The notes under the pieces are model-generated. The model had not been told where the DNA came from. It did no database searches and saw only the letters and a program-made list of their open reading frames with translations. A program made the translations under genes and the position numbers. Shown here piece by piece: positions 42,627 through 52,072 of a stretch of 64,000 nt of DNA. The number at the start of each line of letters is the position of its first letter. Positions within the stretch are counted from its first letter, which is position 1. The DNA comes from an uncultured cyanobacterium (lineage in GTDB: Bacteria > Cyanobacteriota > Cyanobacteriia > PCC-6307 > Cyanobiaceae), in the NCBI GenBank assembly GCA_963765575.1, contig CAVXWZ010000001.1, positions 224,001-288,000 of the forward strand. Reading direction: 5' to 3'.

Positions 42627-44225
42627 GTGAAGCCAACCATCAAGCCGATTTCCAGTCTGCAGCTGGAGAACGGCGCAGAAATCACGGCCTTCAGCCAACG
42701 CAGCAACCGTGCTTTTGTGGTCAGTGGTGGTGAAACTTTAGACGTTGTTCGCTACAAGAACTTCAAGAATCCAAAGCTTCTCGAAAGCCTGTCGCTGCAG
42801 GGATCAGCCAACAGCGTGGCTGTGAATGACGACGGCTTGGTCGCTGTCGCCACCGCCGCGGGGCGCAACAACCGTGGACGGATCGAATTCTTCCAGATCC
42901 GCAAGGACCGCAGCATCAGGAGCAAGGGCAGTGTGCGGGTTGGCAACCTTCCCGATTCCATTGCGTTCACCCCTGATGGCCGCAAGCTGGTCGTCGCCAA
43001 CGAGGGGGAGCCCAACCCGTTCTATGGCACCGAGGACGGCAGGGATCCGGCCGGTTCGATCTCCATCCTCCGGATTGATGATCGCAACCCGCATGAATCC
43101 AGGGTCACCAATCTCGATTTCAAAGACTTTTCCGCCAAAAATCTGCGCAACAGGGGTGTGCGTATCAGTGGCCTCAAGGGAACCAAGCCAGCCACCGACA
43201 TTGAGCCTGAGTATGTGACGGTGTCGCCCGATGGCAAGACCGCCTTCGTGACCCTGCAGGAAAACAACGCCATCGCCGAGGTGAATTTGCAGAGCCGCAA
43301 GATCCGCCGGGTCTTTTCGGCTGGCGTGCAGAACTACAAGACAGCCGGCAAGTTTGATACCTCCGATGAAGATGATGGCTTCAGGCCTGGAAACCGAGAC
43401 TTCAGAGGCTTGCGCATGCCCGATGGTGCTGACAGCTTCGATCGCAAAGGCAAAACTTTCATCATCACCGCCAACGAAGGCGATGGTCGCGTGCGTCCCG
43501 ATGATGTGAACTTCGAAGCTCCAGCCGACGGCACCTACTTCTATGGCACCAAGAAACGCGGCACGGTCTTTGAACGCTTCGAGGATCCTCTCACTGGCAG
43601 GATGGTGTTCATCACCGACCAGGAGCGGGGATCCAGGGGGGCATTCGATGCTGAAGCGGAGGATGAGTTTTTTATTACCCTCAAGTATGGCGCCTCAGCG
43701 GATGACGGTTTCTTCAGTGATGAGATCCGTGCCGGTGATCTCAGCAACCCCAGTGCCAACAAGATTGTCTCGGGCTCCAAGGAAGGGCGCCTGAAAACCA
43801 TCGCCGATGCCAACACCCGCAAGACGCTCGTGGGGTTCGGGGGGCGATCCTTCAGCATCTATGACAGCGTCACCGGTGAGCTGGTGTACGACTCCGGTGA
43901 TCGCCTCGACCGCATCGTCAACAGGGCTGGCCTCTTTGACGATGGCCGCAGCGACGACAAGAGCATCGAGCCCGAAGCGGTGACGACCGCCCGGCTGGGG
44001 AAACGCACCTATGCCTTCATCGGTCTGGAGCGCCCCACCGGATCCATGGTCCCCGTCTTCGACGTGTCCAACCCGGAGCGGCCCAAGCTCGAAGCGCTCT
44101 TCCAGAGTCCGAGCTCCCTCAGCCCCGAGGGCCTCACCTTCGTCAAGAACGGTCGCAAGTCAGGGGTGTTGCTGGTGGCCAACGAGGTGTCGGGCACGCT
44201 CGACAGCTTTGCGTTCAGCGGCTGA
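42627..44225 (+). CDS. Choice-of-anchor I / alkaline-phosphatase-associated beta-propeller protein
   Basis: VANEGEP, IEPEY, VTLQENNA, TANEGD, FGGRSFSI, DGRSDDKSIEPE, VANEVSG. Confidence 0.8.
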   Translation: MKPTIKPISSLQLENGAEITAFSQRSNRAFVVSGGETLDVVRYKNFKNPKLLESLSLQGSANSVAVNDDGLVAVATAAGRNNRGRIEFFQIRKDRSIRSKGSVRVGNLPDSIAFTPDGRKLVVANEGEPNPFYGTEDGRDPAGSISILRIDDRNPHESRVTNLDFKDFSAKNLRNRGVRISGLKGTKPATDIEPEYVTVSPDGKTAFVTLQENNAIAEVNLQSRKIRRVFSAGVQNYKTAGKFDTSDEDDGFRPGNRDFRGLRMPDGADSFDRKGKTFIITANEGDGRVRPDDVNFEAPADGTYFYGTKKRGTVFERFEDPLTGRMVFITDQERGSRGAFDAEAEDEFFITLKYGASADDGFFSDEIRAGDLSNPSANKIVSGSKEGRLKTIADANTRKTLVGFGGRSFSIYDSVTGELVYDSGDRLDRIVNRAGLFDDGRSDDKSIEPEAVTTARLGKRTYAFIGLERPTGSMVPVFDVSNPERPKLEALFQSPSSLSPEGLTFVKNGRKSGVLLVANEVSGTLDSFAFSG

Positions 44226-44227
44226 TC

Positions 44228-44620
44228 TCAGCGGCACCACCGGCAACTGGTGCCACAGGGCCTGGCGGGGGTGGAAGGGCACGGCACCCACCCGCGCGGC
44301 CACATCCGCCACACCCGGGTAGGCCCGCCACATCTTGGCGTGGGCGAGGCCGTAGACCTGCCGCTCGGTGCCGTAGCGCCGCACCCAGTCCACCAGGAAC
44401 ATGGGCAGATCGGGGCTCGCCAGGCCGCCGTTGTGGGAGCCCACCAGCAGCATCTGCCCCTGGCTGGGCATGTGCTCCCAGCCGCTGGTGCGCACCCGGA
44501 AGTAGTGGCGGTAGAACCACTCCCACACCGGCATCAGGCGTTGAATCAGGCGCGGATCGCGGCGGTTCGCCGGCAGGGGCAGGCGGGGAAAGGGCTGGCT
44601 GGCGTGGATGGGGGGCGCGG
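44228..44620 (-). pseudogene. Truncated lysophospholipid/glycerol acyltransferase
   Basis: RDPRLIQRLMPVWEWFYRHYFRV, VGSHNGG; the YPGG segment and C-terminus are missing. Confidence 0.72.
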
Positions 44621-44650
44621 TGCCGGTGGGCAGCGGGTGAGCACGGTGGT

Positions 44651-45586
44651 TCAGGTGGTGAGCAGCCGCACGATGGTGTCGATCTTGCGCTTGTTGGTGC
44701 GGATGAGCAGTTTGGCTTCGTGCACCAGATTCTCGATGTTGCCAGTGGTGACGTTGTCCATGTCATCGGAGGCGGTGGTGAGATCGGTCTGCAGGCGGAT
44801 GTAGTTGTCACCCAGCAGCGTTCTCATCTGGTAGTCGGCCGCATCGGCGACGCCATCGAACATGCAGCTGAGCAGCGGCAGGGCCCACCCCAGCCGGCCC
44901 CAGTCCTTGGCCTCGCGGTGCCGAATGGGCCGCACCAGTTCGCCGGTGCCGATCGACACCACCACAATGTCGTTGTCATCGGGAAACAGCCGGCGCGCTT
45001 CGGCGTAGGCCGACACCACCGGGCTGTTGATGAACACGCCGCCATCCACCAGGGCCTTTGTGGCCCCGTCCACGGCCACCAGCGCCGGCTCGAAAAAGGT
45101 GGGTGCGGCGGATGTGGCACGGGCGGCGTGGCGCATCAGCACCGAGCGGTGACTTGGTTTCCAGCTCTTGAAGAACAGCGGCTGACGGTTCTCGATGTCG
45201 TAGCTGGTGATCAGGGTTCGGGTGAGGCAGGAGCCCAGCGGCTCATCGCCGAAATAGTCCTCCAGCACCCCCTCCAGGCCGGTGTGGGCATAGAGCTCAT
45301 CGCCGAAGCCACCCACCGATGACACCCCTTTCCAGAGGGAACGGGAAAAGATGTCCTTGCCGCGCTTGCGGTAGATCACAGCCAGGTCGCTGGCGGAGTA
45401 GCGGGGGCTGCCGGTGCCATCGTCCCGGCTGAATCCCAGCGCCAGGATCCCGCCGGTGGAGGTGCCGGCGATCAGATCGAAACACTCGGCCACCGCCTTG
45501 CCGGTCTTGGTTTCGATCGCAGCCAGCACCAGGCTGGGGATCAGGCCGCGGATGCCGCCGCCATCGATGCTGAGGATGCGCTTCAT
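44651..45586 (-). CDS. Patatin-like phospholipase
   Basis: ILSIDGGGIRG, GTSTG, ATSAAP, DGG. Confidence 0.93.
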   Translation of the reverse strand: MKRILSIDGGGIRGLIPSLVLAAIETKTGKAVAECFDLIAGTSTGGILALGFSRDDGTGSPRYSASDLAVIYRKRGKDIFSRSLWKGVSSVGGFGDELYAHTGLEGVLEDYFGDEPLGSCLTRTLITSYDIENRQPLFFKSWKPSHRSVLMRHAARATSAAPTFFEPALVAVDGATKALVDGGVFINSPVVSAYAEARRLFPDDNDIVVVSIGTGELVRPIRHREAKDWGRLGWALPLLSCMFDGVADAADYQMRTLLGDNYIRLQTDLTTASDDMDNVTTGNIENLVHEAKLLIRTNKRKIDTIVRLLTT

Positions 45587-45796
45587 GGCCTGGCCAGCAC
45601 GGGCAGCCTCAACGCTGGCGGGAGTGGGGTGGAGGGGCCATCAGCTGACACACCTGGGAACAACCATCGCCACCCCCGCACCGCTTCGCTGCGGCCGGCA
45701 GCACCGCGGCCCCAGCGCAACTCCAGTTGAATGGCCAGCCCCCATCCGCCGCCCTTGCGGCCCATCCTGCAGGGATGCTTCCCCATGCGTGACCCC

Positions 45797-46381
45797 ATGA
45801 CAGACACTCCCACGCCTGCCGCCGGCGATGAGGCCACCTGGTTCAAGGTGCTGCTGGCGGTGCGCTGGCCCGTGGCCGTGGTGGCCTCTGCGGGCGTGCT
45901 CGGTGGCGTGCTGCTGCACGTGCTCAGCCGCCCGATTCCGATCCGGTTGGCCATGCCCCTGGATCAGCCCCTGGCGGTGAAGGCCCAGGTGGCCGAACTG
46001 GCCGAGCCGATCCAGGTGGATCAGCTCGACTCAGCCATCGGCATCGCCCTGAAGGAATCGGTCACCGTGAGAGGCAGCGTTGCGCTCGATACCCCCAGGC
46101 CGATTCCGATCAGCGGTGAGCCCCGCGTGGTGGTGACCAGCCCGGTGGAAGTGAAGCACAGCTCAGCGGTGCCGGTGCGGGGCGCTGTGGACGTCACCGC
46201 CGCCAAGCCGCTGCCGGTGCAGGGGGCGGTGGATGTGACCGCCGGTCAGCCGCTGCCGGTGCAGGGCGCGGTGGAGGTGTCGAGTCCTGAACCCATCCGG
46301 GTGGACTCCGATGTGACCTTGGACACCGAGGACAAGCCCGTGCAGATTGAGTTTAAAGGCGGGCTGATGGGGATTTTCTGA
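45797..46381 (+). CDS. Membrane-anchored hypothetical protein with 14-aa repeats
   Basis: N-terminal TM; GAVDVTAAKPLPVQ GAVDVTAGQPLPVQ GAVEV. Confidence 0.75.
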   Translation: MTDTPTPAAGDEATWFKVLLAVRWPVAVVASAGVLGGVLLHVLSRPIPIRLAMPLDQPLAVKAQVAELAEPIQVDQLDSAIGIALKESVTVRGSVALDTPRPIPISGEPRVVVTSPVEVKHSSAVPVRGAVDVTAAKPLPVQGAVDVTAGQPLPVQGAVEVSSPEPIRVDSDVTLDTEDKPVQIEFKGGLMGIF

Positions 46382-46400
46382 GGGGGTCCGGGGTTGCCGA

Positions 46401-47131
46401 TCAGCTGCGCAGATCGAAGATGTAGAGGCGTGCTTCTTTGTCCTGACATGTAGAGACGTGCTTCTGTCCACACATCTCCTTTTTTCCTCCCTCCCCAACG
46501 AGCCTCCTTTGTCGCTGATGATCCAGAGGCAGTCTCGCTGGCGGTCGTGGCAGAGGGCGGAGAAGTCGATCTCATCGGGCTTCAGCTCGGCATCCACAAA
46601 CCCTTGGCTGTCGTCGAGCACGCGGTGGCTGAGGATGGTCTGGAGATCCGCCGACACTTCGATCAGCAAGCCGGGCTGGCCCTCCTTGAGGGCCAACAAC
46701 GTTTCTGAGCTGCTGTTCCAGCTGAGGCCCTCAAGGCCCTTGTTTGAGCTGCCGGCGGAGACGTAGGGCGCGATCGCGGCAAAGCCCACCATCGCGTCGA
46801 GCCGTGTCCTGATGGTGATGGTCTGCGTGCTGATCTCAGCTTTGATGAAGACATTGCCGTCTTCGACCACGGCGAGCACATGCTCGCCAGCGGGGTCCAG
46901 GGTGATTCCCTCCAGCCCCGTGTCGCTGATCGCAAAGGACCTGGCCGGCAGGATCTTGCCTTTGAGGCTGATCTGGAAGATCCGCTTCGTGTCATCACTC
47001 ACCACCCACAGGGCCTTGCCACCCTCCGCGAGGGTCAGGCCCGATGGTTCAAGCAAGCCCTGGCGCTTGTCCTTGATGTCGTGGCGATCCAGGTAGGTGA
47101 GGCTGAACCGCTGCTGTGCCGGCACGGCCAT
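46401..47131 (-). CDS. SdiA-regulated/YjiK-like beta-propeller protein, garbled near 46440-46510
   Basis: EPSGL, LWVVSD, LEGIT, NKGLEGL, WIISDK; natural end DKEARLYIFDLRS* sits in another frame. Confidence 0.75.
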
Positions 47132-47147
47132 GGCTCCGGGCCTCGAC

Positions 47148-47309
47148 TCAGGGCCTGGGGAGGGGCTGCTCCAGCTCCTGGGCCAGGAGGTCTTGGGCGA
47201 GCAACAGCAGGGCGACACCCATCAGCGCCAGGGCGGTGCCGCGCTGGCCATCACCGCTCAGCTCGAGCATGCGGGCGGTCTGGAGATGCTCAGGCCAGCC
47301 GAGTCGCAT
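47148..47309 (-). CDS. Possible small hypothetical protein (53 aa)
   Basis: MRLGWPEHLQTARMLELSGDGQRGTALALMGVALLLLAQDLLAQELEQPLPRP. Confidence 0.35.
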   Translation of the reverse strand: MRLGWPEHLQTARMLELSGDGQRGTALALMGVALLLLAQDLLAQELEQPLPRP

Positions 47310-47468
47310 GTCTAGACACTGCTTTTGGATGATTCTGGTTTGAAGCGCTGCTCTCCGTGAGCTCCTTTACAACACGAAACACTGACAAGGGCGCCCACCG
47401 GGTAGCCCTTGCTACGCCCATTCGGTATCGGGCCGATACCGTTTCGCCATCCCTCGGCTGCAGAACCC

Positions 47469-47687
47469 ATGGGCGAGTCCATCGAGATCAGTGTGAGCCA
47501 GCGCTTCGAGATCGAGCGCTTCAGCCGTGCCATCGATGGCACCGCCGATCCCGCGGCCCTGCGCCACATTGCCAAGCAGCTGCTGCAGGCCTGGCAGACC
47601 CAGAAGGCCGCCACCACCTGGGCGATCAGCCAGCAGATGGGTCCATGGCCTGCGCCAGACTCGCGGTCGTCTGAACCGATGGCCTGA
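47469..47687 (+). CDS. NblA-like small protein
   Basis: IEISVSQRFEIERF...IAKQLLQAWQTQKAATTWAI, similar to the NblA helix-loop-helix pattern. Confidence 0.55.
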   Translation: MGESIEISVSQRFEIERFSRAIDGTADPAALRHIAKQLLQAWQTQKAATTWAISQQMGPWPAPDSRSSEPMA

Positions 47688-47861
47688 GTGGACCCGATCT
47701 GGATGCTGGTTCCCTGGGCGATCCTCTCGTTGGCGGTGGGTTTGAAGTTCTGGCGCTTTACCCGGCTGGTGCGCCAACACGTGCCTGGACTGTCCTCGGA
47801 GCTGGAGCGGGCCAGGGCCTCGCTGGAGCAGCGCTGGCAGAAAGATCAGCTGGGCACCTGA
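47688..47861 (+). CDS. Small single-TM hypothetical protein (57 aa)
   Basis: Manual from GTG right after the previous stop: MDPIWMLVPWAILSLAVGLKFWRFTRL...LEQRWQKDQLGT. Confidence 0.65.
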   Translation: MDPIWMLVPWAILSLAVGLKFWRFTRLVRQHVPGLSSELERARASLEQRWQKDQLGT

Positions 47862-47898
47862 CCCACGCTGCCGTCACAGAACTTCATAGAGTGTTGGC

Positions 47899-47937
47899 GG
47901 TCATCGAGCGGTTCCTGGACGGGTCCGCTTTTTTTTT
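47899..47937 (+). ncRNA. Candidate sRNA, copy 1
   Basis: -10-like TAGAGT (47887-47892), 6-nt spacer, GGTCATCG, hairpin AGCGGTTCC-TGGAC-GGGTCCGCT, T-run. Confidence 0.6.
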
Positions 47938-47954
47938 GGCCTTTGGCGGCGGCT

Positions 47955-48128
47955 CTAGCGGCTGAGGGTCTTCCAGATCCACCAGGCGGCAACGGCGACC
48001 AGCACCCAGGGCAGCAAGCCTCTGAACAGCAGCAGCACCGCCAACACCACCAGGGCTGACACCGCCGCTCTCCTGGTGAGTGCCTTGGCCTCATCGGTCA
48101 TGTAGCGCCAGCGAGGGACGAGCGGCAT
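47955..48128 (-). CDS. Small hydrophobic protein (57 aa), copy A
   Basis: MPLVPRWRYMTDEAKALTRRAAVSALVVLAVLLLFRGLLPWVLVAVAAWWIWKTLSR. Confidence 0.78.
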   Translation of the reverse strand: MPLVPRWRYMTDEAKALTRRAAVSALVVLAVLLLFRGLLPWVLVAVAAWWIWKTLSR

Positions 48129-48166
48129 GGGCGGAGGGGCGTCACAGAACTTCATAGATTGTGGTC

Positions 48167-48204
48167 GGTCATCGAGCGGGTCCTGGACGGGTCCGCTTTT
48201 TTTT
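48167..48204 (+). ncRNA. Candidate sRNA, copy 2
   Basis: -10-like TAGATT (48155-48160), 6-nt spacer, GGTCATCG, hairpin AGCGGGTCC-TGGAC-GGGTCCGCT, T-run. Confidence 0.6.
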
Positions 48205-48220
48205 GGCCTTCTGGGCGTGT

Positions 48221-48394
48221 CTACCTGCTGATCGCTTTCCAGATCCACCAGGCAGCAACGGCAACCAGCACCCAGGGCAGCAAGCCTCGGAATAGCAGCA
48301 GCACCAGCAACACCACCAGGGCGGAGACAGCAGTTCTCCTTGTGAGTGCCTTGGCCTCATCGGTCATGTAGCGCCAGCGCGGGACGAGTGGCAT
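48221..48394 (-). CDS. Small hydrophobic protein (57 aa), copy B
   Basis: Manual: MPLVPRWRYMTDEAKALTRRTAVSALVVLLVLLLFRGLLPWVLVAVAAWWIWKAISR; most DNA differences from copy A are synonymous. Confidence 0.78.
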   Translation of the reverse strand: MPLVPRWRYMTDEAKALTRRTAVSALVVLLVLLLFRGLLPWVLVAVAAWWIWKAISR

Positions 48395-49033
48395 TGGCGG
48401 AGGGTCTGGTTGGGCTCAGGGGAACCCGCAGCCTAGAAACCTGGCTTGCCGCTTGAGCTCGGAATCGGGTCGGCTCGCCTTGCAGGCGGCGTCTCTGGAC
48501 CTGCTCCTTCATCTTCCGTCAGGGGTGTGATTGGTTGGCTTTCAGCATCTGGACCTGACAGCAGAGCGGTGACGTTCACACCGAAAACATCAAGGTCTTA
48601 GAAATGAGCGCCCACCTGTTCTTGATGGATCCCGGCTGCGGCGACCTCGGCGGACTGGCTCCACTAGAGCGTCACCTGCCCCTGGGTGCCGAGGCGGGTC
48701 TGCACGTCTGCGCCCAGGTGACACCGAGGACAAGGATGCGTTTGCTCTGGTTGCCGTCATTGCCGGTGGCAGACCCAGGATCGGGTGACGTGCGCAGAAG
48801 CTGAGCCCTGCCCAGAGCAGGTTCAGTTCATTCACTCTTGGTCGCTTGCTTCAAGGCCGAGGTCTGCACGTCAGCGCCAGAACCCAGCGTTGAACGGTCC
48901 GTCCGTCCAATGTTGAGTTGGAATGGTTGTCTATCGGTGGCCGGCCTTGAATTTCAGCAGATCTGATCACTTAGGAGGAGCAAGTGCCTCTGGAATCAGA
49001 GGTCTTAGAGTGCAGTAATAGGAGTGGCAGGAA

Positions 49034-49519
49034 TCACTTACAGCCCATGACCGAGATCTTGTAGCTGAATCCTGTTGCATTCGCGTTGAGGCCAGAGCCC
49101 ACCTTCACATTCACCTGCGTTACAAGTTTTTCGGCTGGAGGTGTGAAGAGGCCGTACTCCTTCGCCTGCCCAGGGCTGGCGTCGAGTGTTTCGTTAACAA
49201 TCTGCAGGTTGGTTTCATCGCTGAATTTGAAGAAGGCCAGGATGGGGTAGGGGCCTGGTTTTTTGGAAGTAGACTCAAATTTGAGCAGATAGTTGCGATA
49301 CTGCGTGTCTACCGAAAAGTCGGTGTTGAAGTTGGTGCGCCCGAATGGAAACACAAGAGGACCATCAAGTTGGATCGTCTTGCTGACAACAGTGCCACCG
49401 CCAATGGCTTGCAGTGGTGTGCAGGACTGTGCTCGGACTTGCTCCGCGACCACTATCCCAGAGAATAGACTTGAGACTGCCAAAATGGCGAGAACCTTGG
49501 CCGTTCGGAGCTTTGACAT
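49034..49519 (-). CDS. Secreted hypothetical protein
   Basis: Signal peptide ending VRA; GRTNFNTDF, QVNVKVG, GFSYKISVMGC; low GC. Confidence 0.75.
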   Translation of the reverse strand: MSKLRTAKVLAILAVSSLFSGIVVAEQVRAQSCTPLQAIGGGTVVSKTIQLDGPLVFPFGRTNFNTDFSVDTQYRNYLLKFESTSKKPGPYPILAFFKFSDETNLQIVNETLDASPGQAKEYGLFTPPAEKLVTQVNVKVGSGLNANATGFSYKISVMGCK

Positions 49520-49716
49520 GATTGCGTGAATGCTGTGACCTCATCTTAGGATGCAATCGTTCCTCGATCCTTTCCACAGCCCACTCACACTCCAGCCTGC
49601 CTTCTCGGAAGCACTCCTGCTGTCCATGCACTGAACTTGAGAACGACTATTACAGCTTCCGTCTGCTGTCGTAGGGCACACCTCGACCAGTTGCTTCACA
49701 GATCCTTGAACCGCAC

Positions 49717-52072
49717 TCAACCCGCTGGCTTCGCCAGCGGCAGCAGGCACTTGTCCGAATCACAGCCGGCGGGGCCCGCCTCCATCAGTTCGCCGCCGTC
49801 GTAGCGGGCCAGGGCTTCGAAGAAGTCCGCCTTGGAGCGGCGGGTTTCCACCTCCTGGTGCAGCTGCTGGTAGGTGGCCTTGTCGATCGGCTCAAACGGC
49901 AGCCGGGGGAAGGTGGCGTTGGCATCAAAGCGGGCCAGCAGCGCCGCTGAGATGTAGCCGAGACCCTCATCGACCGCAGCGTGGATGCGCTGGGCCAGCG
50001 GTTCGATCTCGTTCTCGCGGAACTCAATCGTGGCGCTGGTGTTGTGCGCGGTGTAGTGCTGCTGCACCTGCATGTAGAAATCAAACTGCGCCAGCGCTGA
50101 GAAGTTGTTGATCTCCACCGTGTCGGCACCGGGCAGGTTCGCCCAGCTCACCTCCGTGGGGATCTCCACCAGCCACTCGCTGCAGCGCGGATCGAAGGGA
50201 TCATCCAGCAGTCGCCCCTGTTCGTCCTTGTCGCTCTGGCTCGGCACGATCGTGTAGCCGTAGTCCATGCAGGCCAGCGCCACCGGATCGTTCTTGCGGA
50301 AGGTGATGCGGCGGATGAAGCGCTGCGCCTTGGGCGGATGCCAGCCGGGGCTGGCGCCGGTGAGCAGGCTCTTGGTGCCGGCCGGTTGCACCGTGGTGCA
50401 ACGGTTGGGGCGGCGGATGCCGTGGCGGTCGCAGTATTCAGCCACCGCTTCGTGCACGATGCGTTTCCAGCGCTGCAGGTAATCGGCCTCCCGCGCCTTG
50501 AACGCCCGGCCCTCCTCGGAATCGGGCCGGCCGGCCTCCCACCAGCGCAGCCAGGGCGTGCCGAAGGCATGCACGAAGAAGTCGAACAAACCCGTGAAGC
50601 TCACCCCCACGATCGGATCCCAGGCCCGGCTCTGGCGGTAGCGCTCCACCTCAAACTGATGGTTCAGCAGGCAGGCCACGGCGATCGCGGCGGCGCGGAA
50701 GGCCTCCTCCTGGGCCTGGAAGTCGGTGGGGTGGATCTGGTTGAGGTGGATCTCCGCCAGGTTGCAGTGGAAGTCGGCGCCGAGGATCTCGCCGCAGGGA
50801 TTGAGCCCGTAGCGGCTCAGGCGGTGCTCCAGCTCATCGCTCTCCAGGCCCGGGTGGTGCAGCAGCAGCCACTGGGCCGCCTGCTCGCGGCCCTGGTCGC
50901 AGTAGATGCCCACAAACTCCTCGCGCAGCTCGGCGGTGCTCAGCAGGTCGGCATTGGAGCGGGCGATCGCCTCGGGGGCGAACTGGATCGCCCCCTCGCC
51001 GCTCTGGAACTGCTTGGTCACCGCCTCCAGCACCGTCTGGTAGCTGGGCCTGGTGTGGAACACGCGCGTGTGGTTTGCCATCCGCAGCGAGTCGCGCTCC
51101 GGATCGATCCGCCAGTTGCCCTGCGCGTCCTGCTGCCAGAGGTTGTCCTTGGCGCCGGCCGCGGCCGTGTCCTCGGCCATGAACTGGCGCATGCCGGCGC
51201 TGCGGCGGATGTTGCCCGCCACGATCGTCACGGCGGCCTCATCGATCAGCAGGCAGCACTCCACCGAGGTCAGTTGTCGCCCCTGGGCCTTGTTGAGGAT
51301 CTGGGCCACGCGGGCGTAGAGGTCCTTGAGCTTCACCGGGTTGGCCATGCCGCCGAAGCCCTTGAGGGTTTCGCCCACCGGCCGCACATCGGAGAGATCC
51401 ACGCTCACCCGGATCGGCGCGCCGGCCTCAAAGCGCTCGTCGCTGCTCAGCTCCAGCAGCTGCTGGTAGCTGTCCACCCAGCCGCGGCGGGTGTCGCCCA
51501 CCTTGATCGCCACGCGCTGGCCGTCGATCGTGTGGGTGGTGTGCTGCTGGCGTTGGCCGGCCGGGGTGGCGCCGATGTCGGCCACGCCGGTGATTTCCAG
51601 GCGATTGCGCACCGCCGGCAGCCTCGAGATCAGCCGTGGCTCGATGATGGCGCCGGTGCCGCAGCCCATCATCGCCAGATCCATCATCAGCCCGAAGGCC
51701 TCCCAGTCCACCAGGTTGGTGGAGGTGCAGTTGTAGGCGCCGCTGAAGTTCTCCTGCTGCTCGATCCAGGGGGTGCCGCCGATCCACAGCCAGCGGCCCG
51801 AGGGCAACGACTTCTGCTGCAGCTGCATCCGCCGCAGCAGCTCCACCTCGGCCTCGCTGAGGTGGCCGAGCTGACGCAGGCCCTGCCAGGTTGCGCTCCA
51901 CCACCTGGTGCCAGCTTTCGCGGCCCGCCTCCTGGCGGCGGGAATAGGTGCGATAGAAGACGGGGTTGGCGGCTGGTGCCGTGGCCGGGAAATCGCCCCG
52001 CGCCGGGGCTGCGAAACCCTGTTCAGCGGTGGCGCGGGCCGCGACGGCGGGGGGCGTTGCGGAGAGGGTCAC
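49717..52072 (-). CDS. nrdJ: Class II (adenosylcobalamin-dependent) ribonucleotide reductase, one frameshift near 51885
   Basis: NPVFYRTYSR; SGRWLW, AYNC, GNIRRSA, NPCGE, CNLAE, TTVQPAGT, C-terminal GCDSDKC. Confidence 0.95.

Follow-up and report, generated by a model that had tools for sequence, protein, structure and literature searches.

The window analysed here, 64,000 nt of DNA from an uncultured cyanobacterium, contains at 47873..48394 a tandemly duplicated unit whose plus strand very probably holds the free-standing gene of a small RNA of 36–39 nt, which would act in trans and belongs to a conserved family. The RNA looks, from its promoter and its first ten bases, built to switch on in strong light and to cover the psaA start codon. 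The best reading, to which we give a probability of roughly 0.6, is that it would be an independently evolved analogue of the high-light feed-forward loop that RpaB and PsrR1 form in Synechocystis PCC 6803, as the available text of three reports presents it (PMC6525291, PMC6596454, PMC13421787), turning photosystem I down in high light.

What does the duplicated unit look like? The element consists, in order, of an 18-bp box, a −10 hexamer, a free spacer of 6–7 nt, GGUCAUCGAG, a hairpin and a U run. In the window, the two copies of the element start 268 nt apart and the minus-strand ORF copies lie 266 nt apart, in agreement with the two ~268-bp units described in an earlier, sequence-only reading of this DNA. 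The unit anatomy given there is likewise present in both copies: GTCACAGAACTTCA, a TAnnnT hexamer, a 6-nt spacer that differs between copies (GTTGGC in copy 1 and GTGGTC in copy 2, two differences), the invariant GGTCATCGAG, a hairpin and a T run (T9 in copy 1, T8 in copy 2). A spacer that is free while both of its flanks are fixed is the pattern of a transcription start.

Table. Features of the duplicated unit, with positions in the window
Feature	Position	Strand	Remark
CCACG, weakly conserved −35-region motif, RNA copy 1	47863..47867	+	about −36 to −32; missing in copy 2
18-bp 8-2-8 direct-repeat box GTCACAGA-AC-TTCATAGA, HLR1 (RpaB)-like, overlaps −10	47873..47890	+	predicted position −26 to −9
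−10 hexamer TAGAGT, copy 1 (putative)	47887..47892	+	
Predicted small RNA, copy 1	47899..47937	+	5' seed GGUCAUCGAG at 47899-47908; stem-loop 47907-47929; U run
57-aa membrane microprotein gene, copy 1	47955..48128	-	start 12 nt from box 2
HLR1-like box, copy 2, identical to copy 1	48141..48158	+	left end of duplicated unit
−10 hexamer TAGATT, copy 2 (putative)	48155..48160	+	
Predicted small RNA, copy 2, family consensus form	48167..48204	+	
57-aa membrane microprotein gene, copy 2	48221..48394	-	native upstream region kept

Between the two ORF copies, 4 of 57 residues and 20 bases are changed, the latter distributed 6/1/13 over the three codon positions. Twelve codons differ synonymously and four non-synonymously (pS 0.31, pN 0.048; Fisher p 2e-5), so the claim that divergence is mostly synonymous holds, and the pattern indicates purifying selection on the ORF copies. 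The claim of selection on the unit needs one caveat. The distance between the two ORF copies (20 nt) is about the distance from them to the nearest alleles in other species (20–26 nt); since the copies are no closer to each other than to foreign alleles, the signal may predate the tandem arrangement, which would reflect either an old duplication or the joining of two alleles. The duplication is seen only in the present genome (2.7 Mb, 69% GC), where a whole-genome check found no further copies; all other carriers examined have one copy. Proteins encoded in the present genome match Cyanobium entries. Unit 2 starts at the promoter box and thus is without the CCACG of unit 1, and ORF copy 1, starting so close to box 2, has lost its own upstream region. 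A local duplication would have doubled the RNA gene, with the 57-aa gene carried along as a frequent neighbour. Two copies would give a higher dose of the RNA, but promoter 2 may be the weaker one.

The RNA gene has a restricted and patchy range. A covariance model of the RNA part gave strong matches in 22 of the 151 genomes of the picocyanobacterial family and none in 113 genomes of other cyanobacterial families. Within the genus, 15 of 32 genomes carry the RNA, leaving about half without it. A pattern scan of 185,579 species genomes returned 47 loci, 34 of them with the whole element, all in cyanobacterial records, mostly of Cyanobium, Synechococcus and Vulcanococcus; the other 13 are chance matches without the hairpin. 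The predicted gene occurs in many freshwater picocyanobacteria. A relaxed pattern of seed, −10 and T run, applied to the 151 family genomes, recovered the same carriers and no divergent members, and its extra matches are hairpin-less, lie mostly in small genomes and occur at a level like that of a reversed control. Viral contigs gave no match to the promoter pattern; a seed pattern had 17 matches there, all of which lacked both the promoter box and the stem of the family. A search of sequencing runs listed no RNA holder, a result without bearing on expression. Twelve weak covariance-model matches (33.8 bits or less) were dropped because they were without seed or promoter, and a loose pattern, GGTCATCG-GCGG, was uninformative, as it matched every genome. 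A 33.8-bit match at locus L112 (G012:C1:665083-665123) starts with GGTCATCAG and has a different hairpin and a T run, without box or −10; this element may be decayed or unrelated. The RNA family is new with respect to the literature covered (titles and abstract starts, few subscription journals), which holds no description of it or of a psaA-targeting sRNA in Cyanobium. Picocyanobacterial sRNA or start-site tables could list the RNA unnamed.

Since the first pattern contained the promoter, the promoter was tested with a promoter-blind query. A metagenome scan with seed and stem only gave at least 120 matches, 97 of them distinct and with enough flank. Among the matches listed, TAnnnT stands 6–7 nt before the first G in 89 of these 97 copies, against a background of 0.46%, and a T run is present in 95. 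Similarly, all 17 copies with divergent boxes that were found by the RNA-only model have TAnnnT 6–7 nt upstream. CCAC of the −35 region is found in 93 of 137 distinct upstream regions. A sigma-70 consensus scan called no promoter, because there is no TTGACA-like −35. Taken across the family, the conserved −10, box, seed and T run support the proposed gene for an RNA of ~39 nt, transcribed from a promoter of its own. A comparison with Rfam, of interest because the RNA might have belonged to a described Yfr family, gave no match on the element (cmscan of 44000-52000, E up to 1). Covariation offered no help: the stem is conserved, with no compensatory change, and the hairpin alone folds no better than shuffles (z −0.1 to −1.4). 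Nucleotides 1–8 of the RNA are predicted to be accessible, at an opening cost of 1.3 kcal/mol, while seed bases 9–10 lie in the stem (5.9 kcal/mol).

What would control this promoter? The box is an imperfect 8-2-8 repeat like HLR1, for which the available part of one report gives (G/T)TTACA(T/A)(T/A) twice (10.1101/443713). The boxes differ from this consensus at 2–7 of 16 positions (5 in the present genome), mostly in the half that doubles as the −10, and the first half is a perfect GTTACAAA in 4 of 28 box types. The psaA promoters carry GTTACAAAGGTTCAAT on the reverse strand (40 loci), and this sequence differs from the RNA box about as little as RNA boxes differ among themselves. In all 44 loci where it was found, the psaA box lies 29–31 nt from TAnnnT, with its centre at about −51. 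The box of the RNA gene lies over the −10 with its centre at about −17, counting from start sites predicted from the −10 elements. According to the available text of one report, RpaB activates from −66 to −45 and represses from −38 to +23 (PMC6525291). Thus, the position at the RNA gene matches the repressing window and that at psaA the activating window. A matrix built from the 28 RNA boxes alone, run over 2676 upstream regions, ranks an RpaB-family regulator (named by NCBIfam) 2nd and psaA 4th. Also ranked high are genes that, by recognition of their sequences, we take to be apcA (7th), hli (10th and 24th), psaI (15th) and psbE (19th). We infer that the regulator is SrrA from the presence of a second, more typical RpaB. 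With a 14-column matrix of the RNA boxes, a preset list of 28 photosynthesis and high-light genes, fixed by motifs before scoring, had a mean percentile of 0.78 versus 0.57 +/- 0.06 for permuted matrices, and 0 of 200 permutations reached as high; a whole-genome scan with 16 columns gave no excess over permuted matrices. The gene classes that the box matrix enriches are known targets of RpaB. By motif, the box groups with photosynthesis promoters (psaA, hli and others), and control of the RNA gene by RpaB is likely.

The candidate target is found at the other end of the predicted RNA. Its first ten bases are the exact reverse complement of CUCG-AUG-ACC at the start codon of psaA, a gene identified by NCBIfam TIGR01335. 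The CTCG-ATG-ACC 10-mer occurs 24 times in the genome, only once at a called gene start, and psaA is the only one of 2681 called starts (our own simple gene calls on one genome) with ten of ten Watson–Crick pairs. Among the carriers, 21 of 21 have the site intact. For a shuffled seed, the chance of a match is p 5e-5 with a given gene and p 0.005 with a set of 100 photosynthesis genes, or 0.017 if CAT keeps its place. Since about 2.5 genes with CTCG-ATG-ACC are expected by chance, one perfect match is not rare in itself; only its identity is. At full length, the RNA is predicted to continue the duplex over the Shine-Dalgarno sequence and over one more block upstream (net −22.6 and −17.4 kcal/mol). 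Ranked by whole-RNA energy among the 2681 genes, psaA comes 2nd and 11th; once accessibility is included, over 217 prefiltered genes, it is 3rd with copy 1 and falls below the top ten with copy 2.

Conservation of the psaA site has to be read with care. Non-carriers keep it equally (18 of 20), and CTCGATGACC is present in 66 of 74 psaA loci, so that co-evolution does not account for its conservation. The only variant of the seed, C7U, still forms a G-U pair with unchanged psaA. There is no RNA/psaA covariation, cognate RNA/UTR pairs scoring no better than swapped pairs (p 0.45). Compared with random loops, UGGAC, the majority loop, gives better pairing with the psaA leader (p 0.01–0.14; 7 of 18 distinct pairs <0.1); the minority loops pair no better than random ones. 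As a separate observation, the psaA leaders (L120-L189) hardly vary family-wide over the 30 nt ahead of the start, and this includes small AT-rich genomes without the RNA. The psaA leader can fold a short hairpin beside the Shine-Dalgarno sequence, and other conserved control may act there.

The same evidence bears on the possibility that the RNA is RpaB-controlled but has its main targets elsewhere, or acts on many AUG-ACC/GCC mRNAs, with the psaA match minor or incidental. Almost all of the top-ranked predicted duplexes cover an AUG and stop at +6, 173 of 1895 ATG genes have ACC as their second codon, psbA keeps six pairs in 3 of 5 carriers, hemE keeps a 6-nt run in 4 of 5, and the best score in the present genome belongs to hemN. 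However, an invariant 10-nt seed needs an invariant site, and no rival tested keeps one. Six rivals were tested across genomes. hemN was rejected as a conserved target, as ATGACC is present in 2 of the 12 carriers in which its start was seen, and five further high-scoring candidates lose pairing in relatives, none reaching 10 pairs in the five carriers tested. Broader or different targeting is therefore unlikely, while still carrying some weight. psaA is singled out, among the predicted duplexes, by the persistence of its site, unlike hemN and the five other high scorers, and it is probably a main target.

How would an RpaB-controlled RNA aimed at psaA act? In low light, RpaB bound to the box over the −10 would repress the RNA gene, while RpaB bound near −51 would activate psaAB. 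Upon a shift to high light, RpaB would leave, psaAB transcription would fall and the RNA would be made. Its unpaired 5' end, GGUCAU, would bind AUGACC and then extend over CUCG; the duplex could go on to the Shine-Dalgarno sequence (UCC/GGA) and further upstream (GGACGG/CCGUCC). Pairing would block initiation on existing psaA mRNA, giving less new photosystem I. This would be a coherent feed-forward loop like that of RpaB and PsrR1, with an unrelated RNA in place of PsrR1. The RNA may also pair, more weakly and over 6 nt, with other starts that read AUG-ACC, such as those of psbA and hemE. The antisense strand of the RNA reads like the psaA initiation region (AGGA, 8 nt, AUG-ACC), and thus the RNA may descend from an inverted copy of that region that came to lie behind an HLR1 promoter. 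The sequence-only reading had offered a light-regulated sRNA/microprotein cassette as one option; its hint of light regulation fits the predicted RpaB/HLR1-like box, and the probable target, psaA, had escaped it.

How does this RNA compare with known ones? PsrR1 (SyR1) shares with it an HLR1 over the promoter, de-repression in high light, a block on initiation of photosystem I mRNA and activation of the targets by RpaB, according to the available text of the same reports (PMC6525291, PMC6596454, PMC13421787). For the present RNA, the HLR1 over the sRNA promoter is a motif match with the consensus mismatches given above, and the pairing with the initiation region of a photosystem I gene that has an activating HLR1 is predicted. 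PsrR1 is about 131 nt long, whereas the present RNA is 36–39 nt, matches psaA and is found in one picocyanobacterial family only; length and range are what set it apart as a putative family distinct from PsrR1. Yfr1, Yfr10 and Yfr2 are, like it, short free-standing picocyanobacterial sRNAs in which a conserved motif is single-stranded and a hairpin serves as terminator. In Yfr1 and Yfr10, however, as far as the available text goes, the motif contains UCCU and lies between stems or in a loop, and these two RNAs occur in nearly all cyanobacteria (PMC6778093). The present RNA is set apart from these descriptions by its 5' seed, its patchy range and its lack of an Rfam match. NsiR1 of Nostoc is also a very short sRNA in repeated units, each with its own promoter motif, in the available account (PMC6596454), but it is controlled by NtcA/HetR and arrayed as a rule, whereas the present RNA is single in all other carriers examined.

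What would such a loop mean? The accessible part of one report gives PsrR1 as absent or undetectable in alpha-cyanobacteria, which would leave post-transcriptional control of photosystem I open in this abundant group of primary producers (PMC6596454); the RNA is a named candidate for that role, with a regulator, a target site and exact bases. If the reading is true, carriers and non-carriers within one genus should lower photosystem I synthesis at different speeds when light is high, and the absence of the RNA from about half of the genus provides a natural comparison. Confirmation would mean convergent evolution of a whole regulatory loop and a very short RNA aimed at a reaction-centre gene. 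The near-invariance of the target site in the family would also make the RNA a candidate 38-nt tool with which to tune photosystem I. A fuller and more tentative proposal, somewhat less probable than not, is that freshwater picocyanobacteria, independently of PsrR1, evolved a minimal (36–39 nt) RpaB-repressed RNA that shuts off PsaA translation, that this RNA may be an inverted copy of the psaA region, and that the read-through 3' end of the microprotein mRNA could be a sponge.

What is the role of the 57-aa gene facing the RNA? The protein is small and hydrophobic, with a predicted transmembrane helix (19-residue Kyte-Doolittle values up to 2.7) and a net charge of +6; the pattern is conserved. 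It is a real, conserved microprotein, as the sequence-only reading had supposed, with at least 361 relatives, in addition to the selection seen between its copies. The family is confined to picocyanobacteria in the genomes searched. No named family was found in Pfam, NCBIfam, PHROGs, the ESM Atlas or a 50%-cluster library, only small hypothetical relatives. Searches of 50,697 phage records and 72,556 plasmid records were also negative, as were those against the toxin families of Pfam, NCBIfam and PHROGs. The ORF occurs in 90 of the 151 family genomes: 18 have both parts and 72 the ORF only, including the complete or near-complete G002, G012 and G019, while 4 genomes have the RNA only. An obligate RNA/microprotein cassette is not supported. 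The conservation and mostly low copy number of the microprotein fit an ordinary membrane accessory protein, probably only a neighbour and not a toxin. Many small genomes without the RNA (G069, G075, G105, G110 and others) have two to four copies of the 57-aa family.

Could the RNA instead be a cis-antisense regulator of a non-toxic 57-aa gene, via a read-through 3' UTR, or the 3' UTR be a sponge? Convergent adjacency recurs in several genera, and so may be the ancestral arrangement. The ORF faces the RNA in 22 of 54 other distinct genomic copies (3 are back to back and 29 have no ORF in the locus), in 33 of the 97 metagenomic copies among the matches listed, and in 11 of 17 other family-sample genomes holding both parts. 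The ORF stop lies 46–92 nt from the RNA +1; the coding sequence does not overlap the RNA, so that overlap would need 10–50 nt of read-through, and between ORF and element no terminator on the minus strand was found. Moreover, ORF copy 1 is without an upstream region of its own, so its mRNA, if expressed, would cross RNA gene 2. Yet most RNA copies are without such a neighbour while the seed is invariant, and in many genomes the ORF stands without the RNA. The two strands of a cis pair match with any sequence, which would leave the seed free to change; synteny thus cannot explain the invariant seed, and cis regulation as the main function is improbable.

A further alternative is that there is no RNA gene at all, the element serving only to end transcription of the genes before it, or else holding on its minus strand a mini-ORF of six codons with a ribosome site. 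Copy 1 does follow two plus-strand ORFs, and its hairpin is without covariation. The minus strand reads AGGA-N8-ATG-ACC, with a 6-aa frame in 100 of 137 copies. However, copy 2 is without a plus-strand gene upstream, and a terminator needs no −10 at fixed spacing, no 18-bp box and no invariant 5' tail, which argues against the terminator-only possibility that the sequence-only reading had raised. The 6-aa peptide varies freely in its middle and is lost in 37 of 137 copies. Both versions are very improbable.

The type I loci BsrG/SR4 and TxpA/RatA and the cyanobacterial candidate MsoT1/MsoA1 share with the present locus a small hydrophobic ORF facing a small-RNA gene, and the layout of TxpA/RatA is convergent; here, however, the parts are not co-inherited, the ORF is absent from the phages and plasmids searched and the conserved seed matches a different mRNA. 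The toxin-antitoxin reading, one of the two offered initially, with the hydrophobic, basic peptide as toxin and the RNA as 3'-overlapping antitoxin, can draw on the tandem copies and on a convergent layout like that of BsrG/SR4, for which the available text describes 3'-UTR pairing (PMC12390103), but it appears strongly disfavoured by its distribution (72 of 90 ORF carriers without the RNA, 4 of 22 RNA carriers without an ORF match), by poor seed pairing with the ORF 5' region and coding sequence (−10 kcal/mol, split) and by a promoter box that groups with photosynthesis genes, and it has very little left to recommend it.

A second microprotein of 57 aa (47688-47861, plus strand) is hydrophobic over a stretch at its N terminus and is without a family. 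In relatives it turns up again close to the RNA gene or to the convergent ORF, which suggests a small-gene island that reshuffles. Before it lies a 72-aa ORF (47469-47687, plus strand) that presumably resembles NblA-like proteins, with no Pfam or NCBIfam match and a weak match to phrog_27081. Upstream of this ORF are an NtcA-type palindrome, GTA-N8-TAC (47402-47415), and a perfect 9-bp inverted repeat (47423-47441). A 62-aa paralogue at G000 C11:713864 (minus strand; locus L212) matches phrog_27081 with E 1e-5 and has an HLR1-like box ~27 nt upstream. Finally, a 216-aa ORF without a Pfam match (45731-46381, plus strand) contains three 42-nt (14-residue) tandem repeats at 46167-46292.
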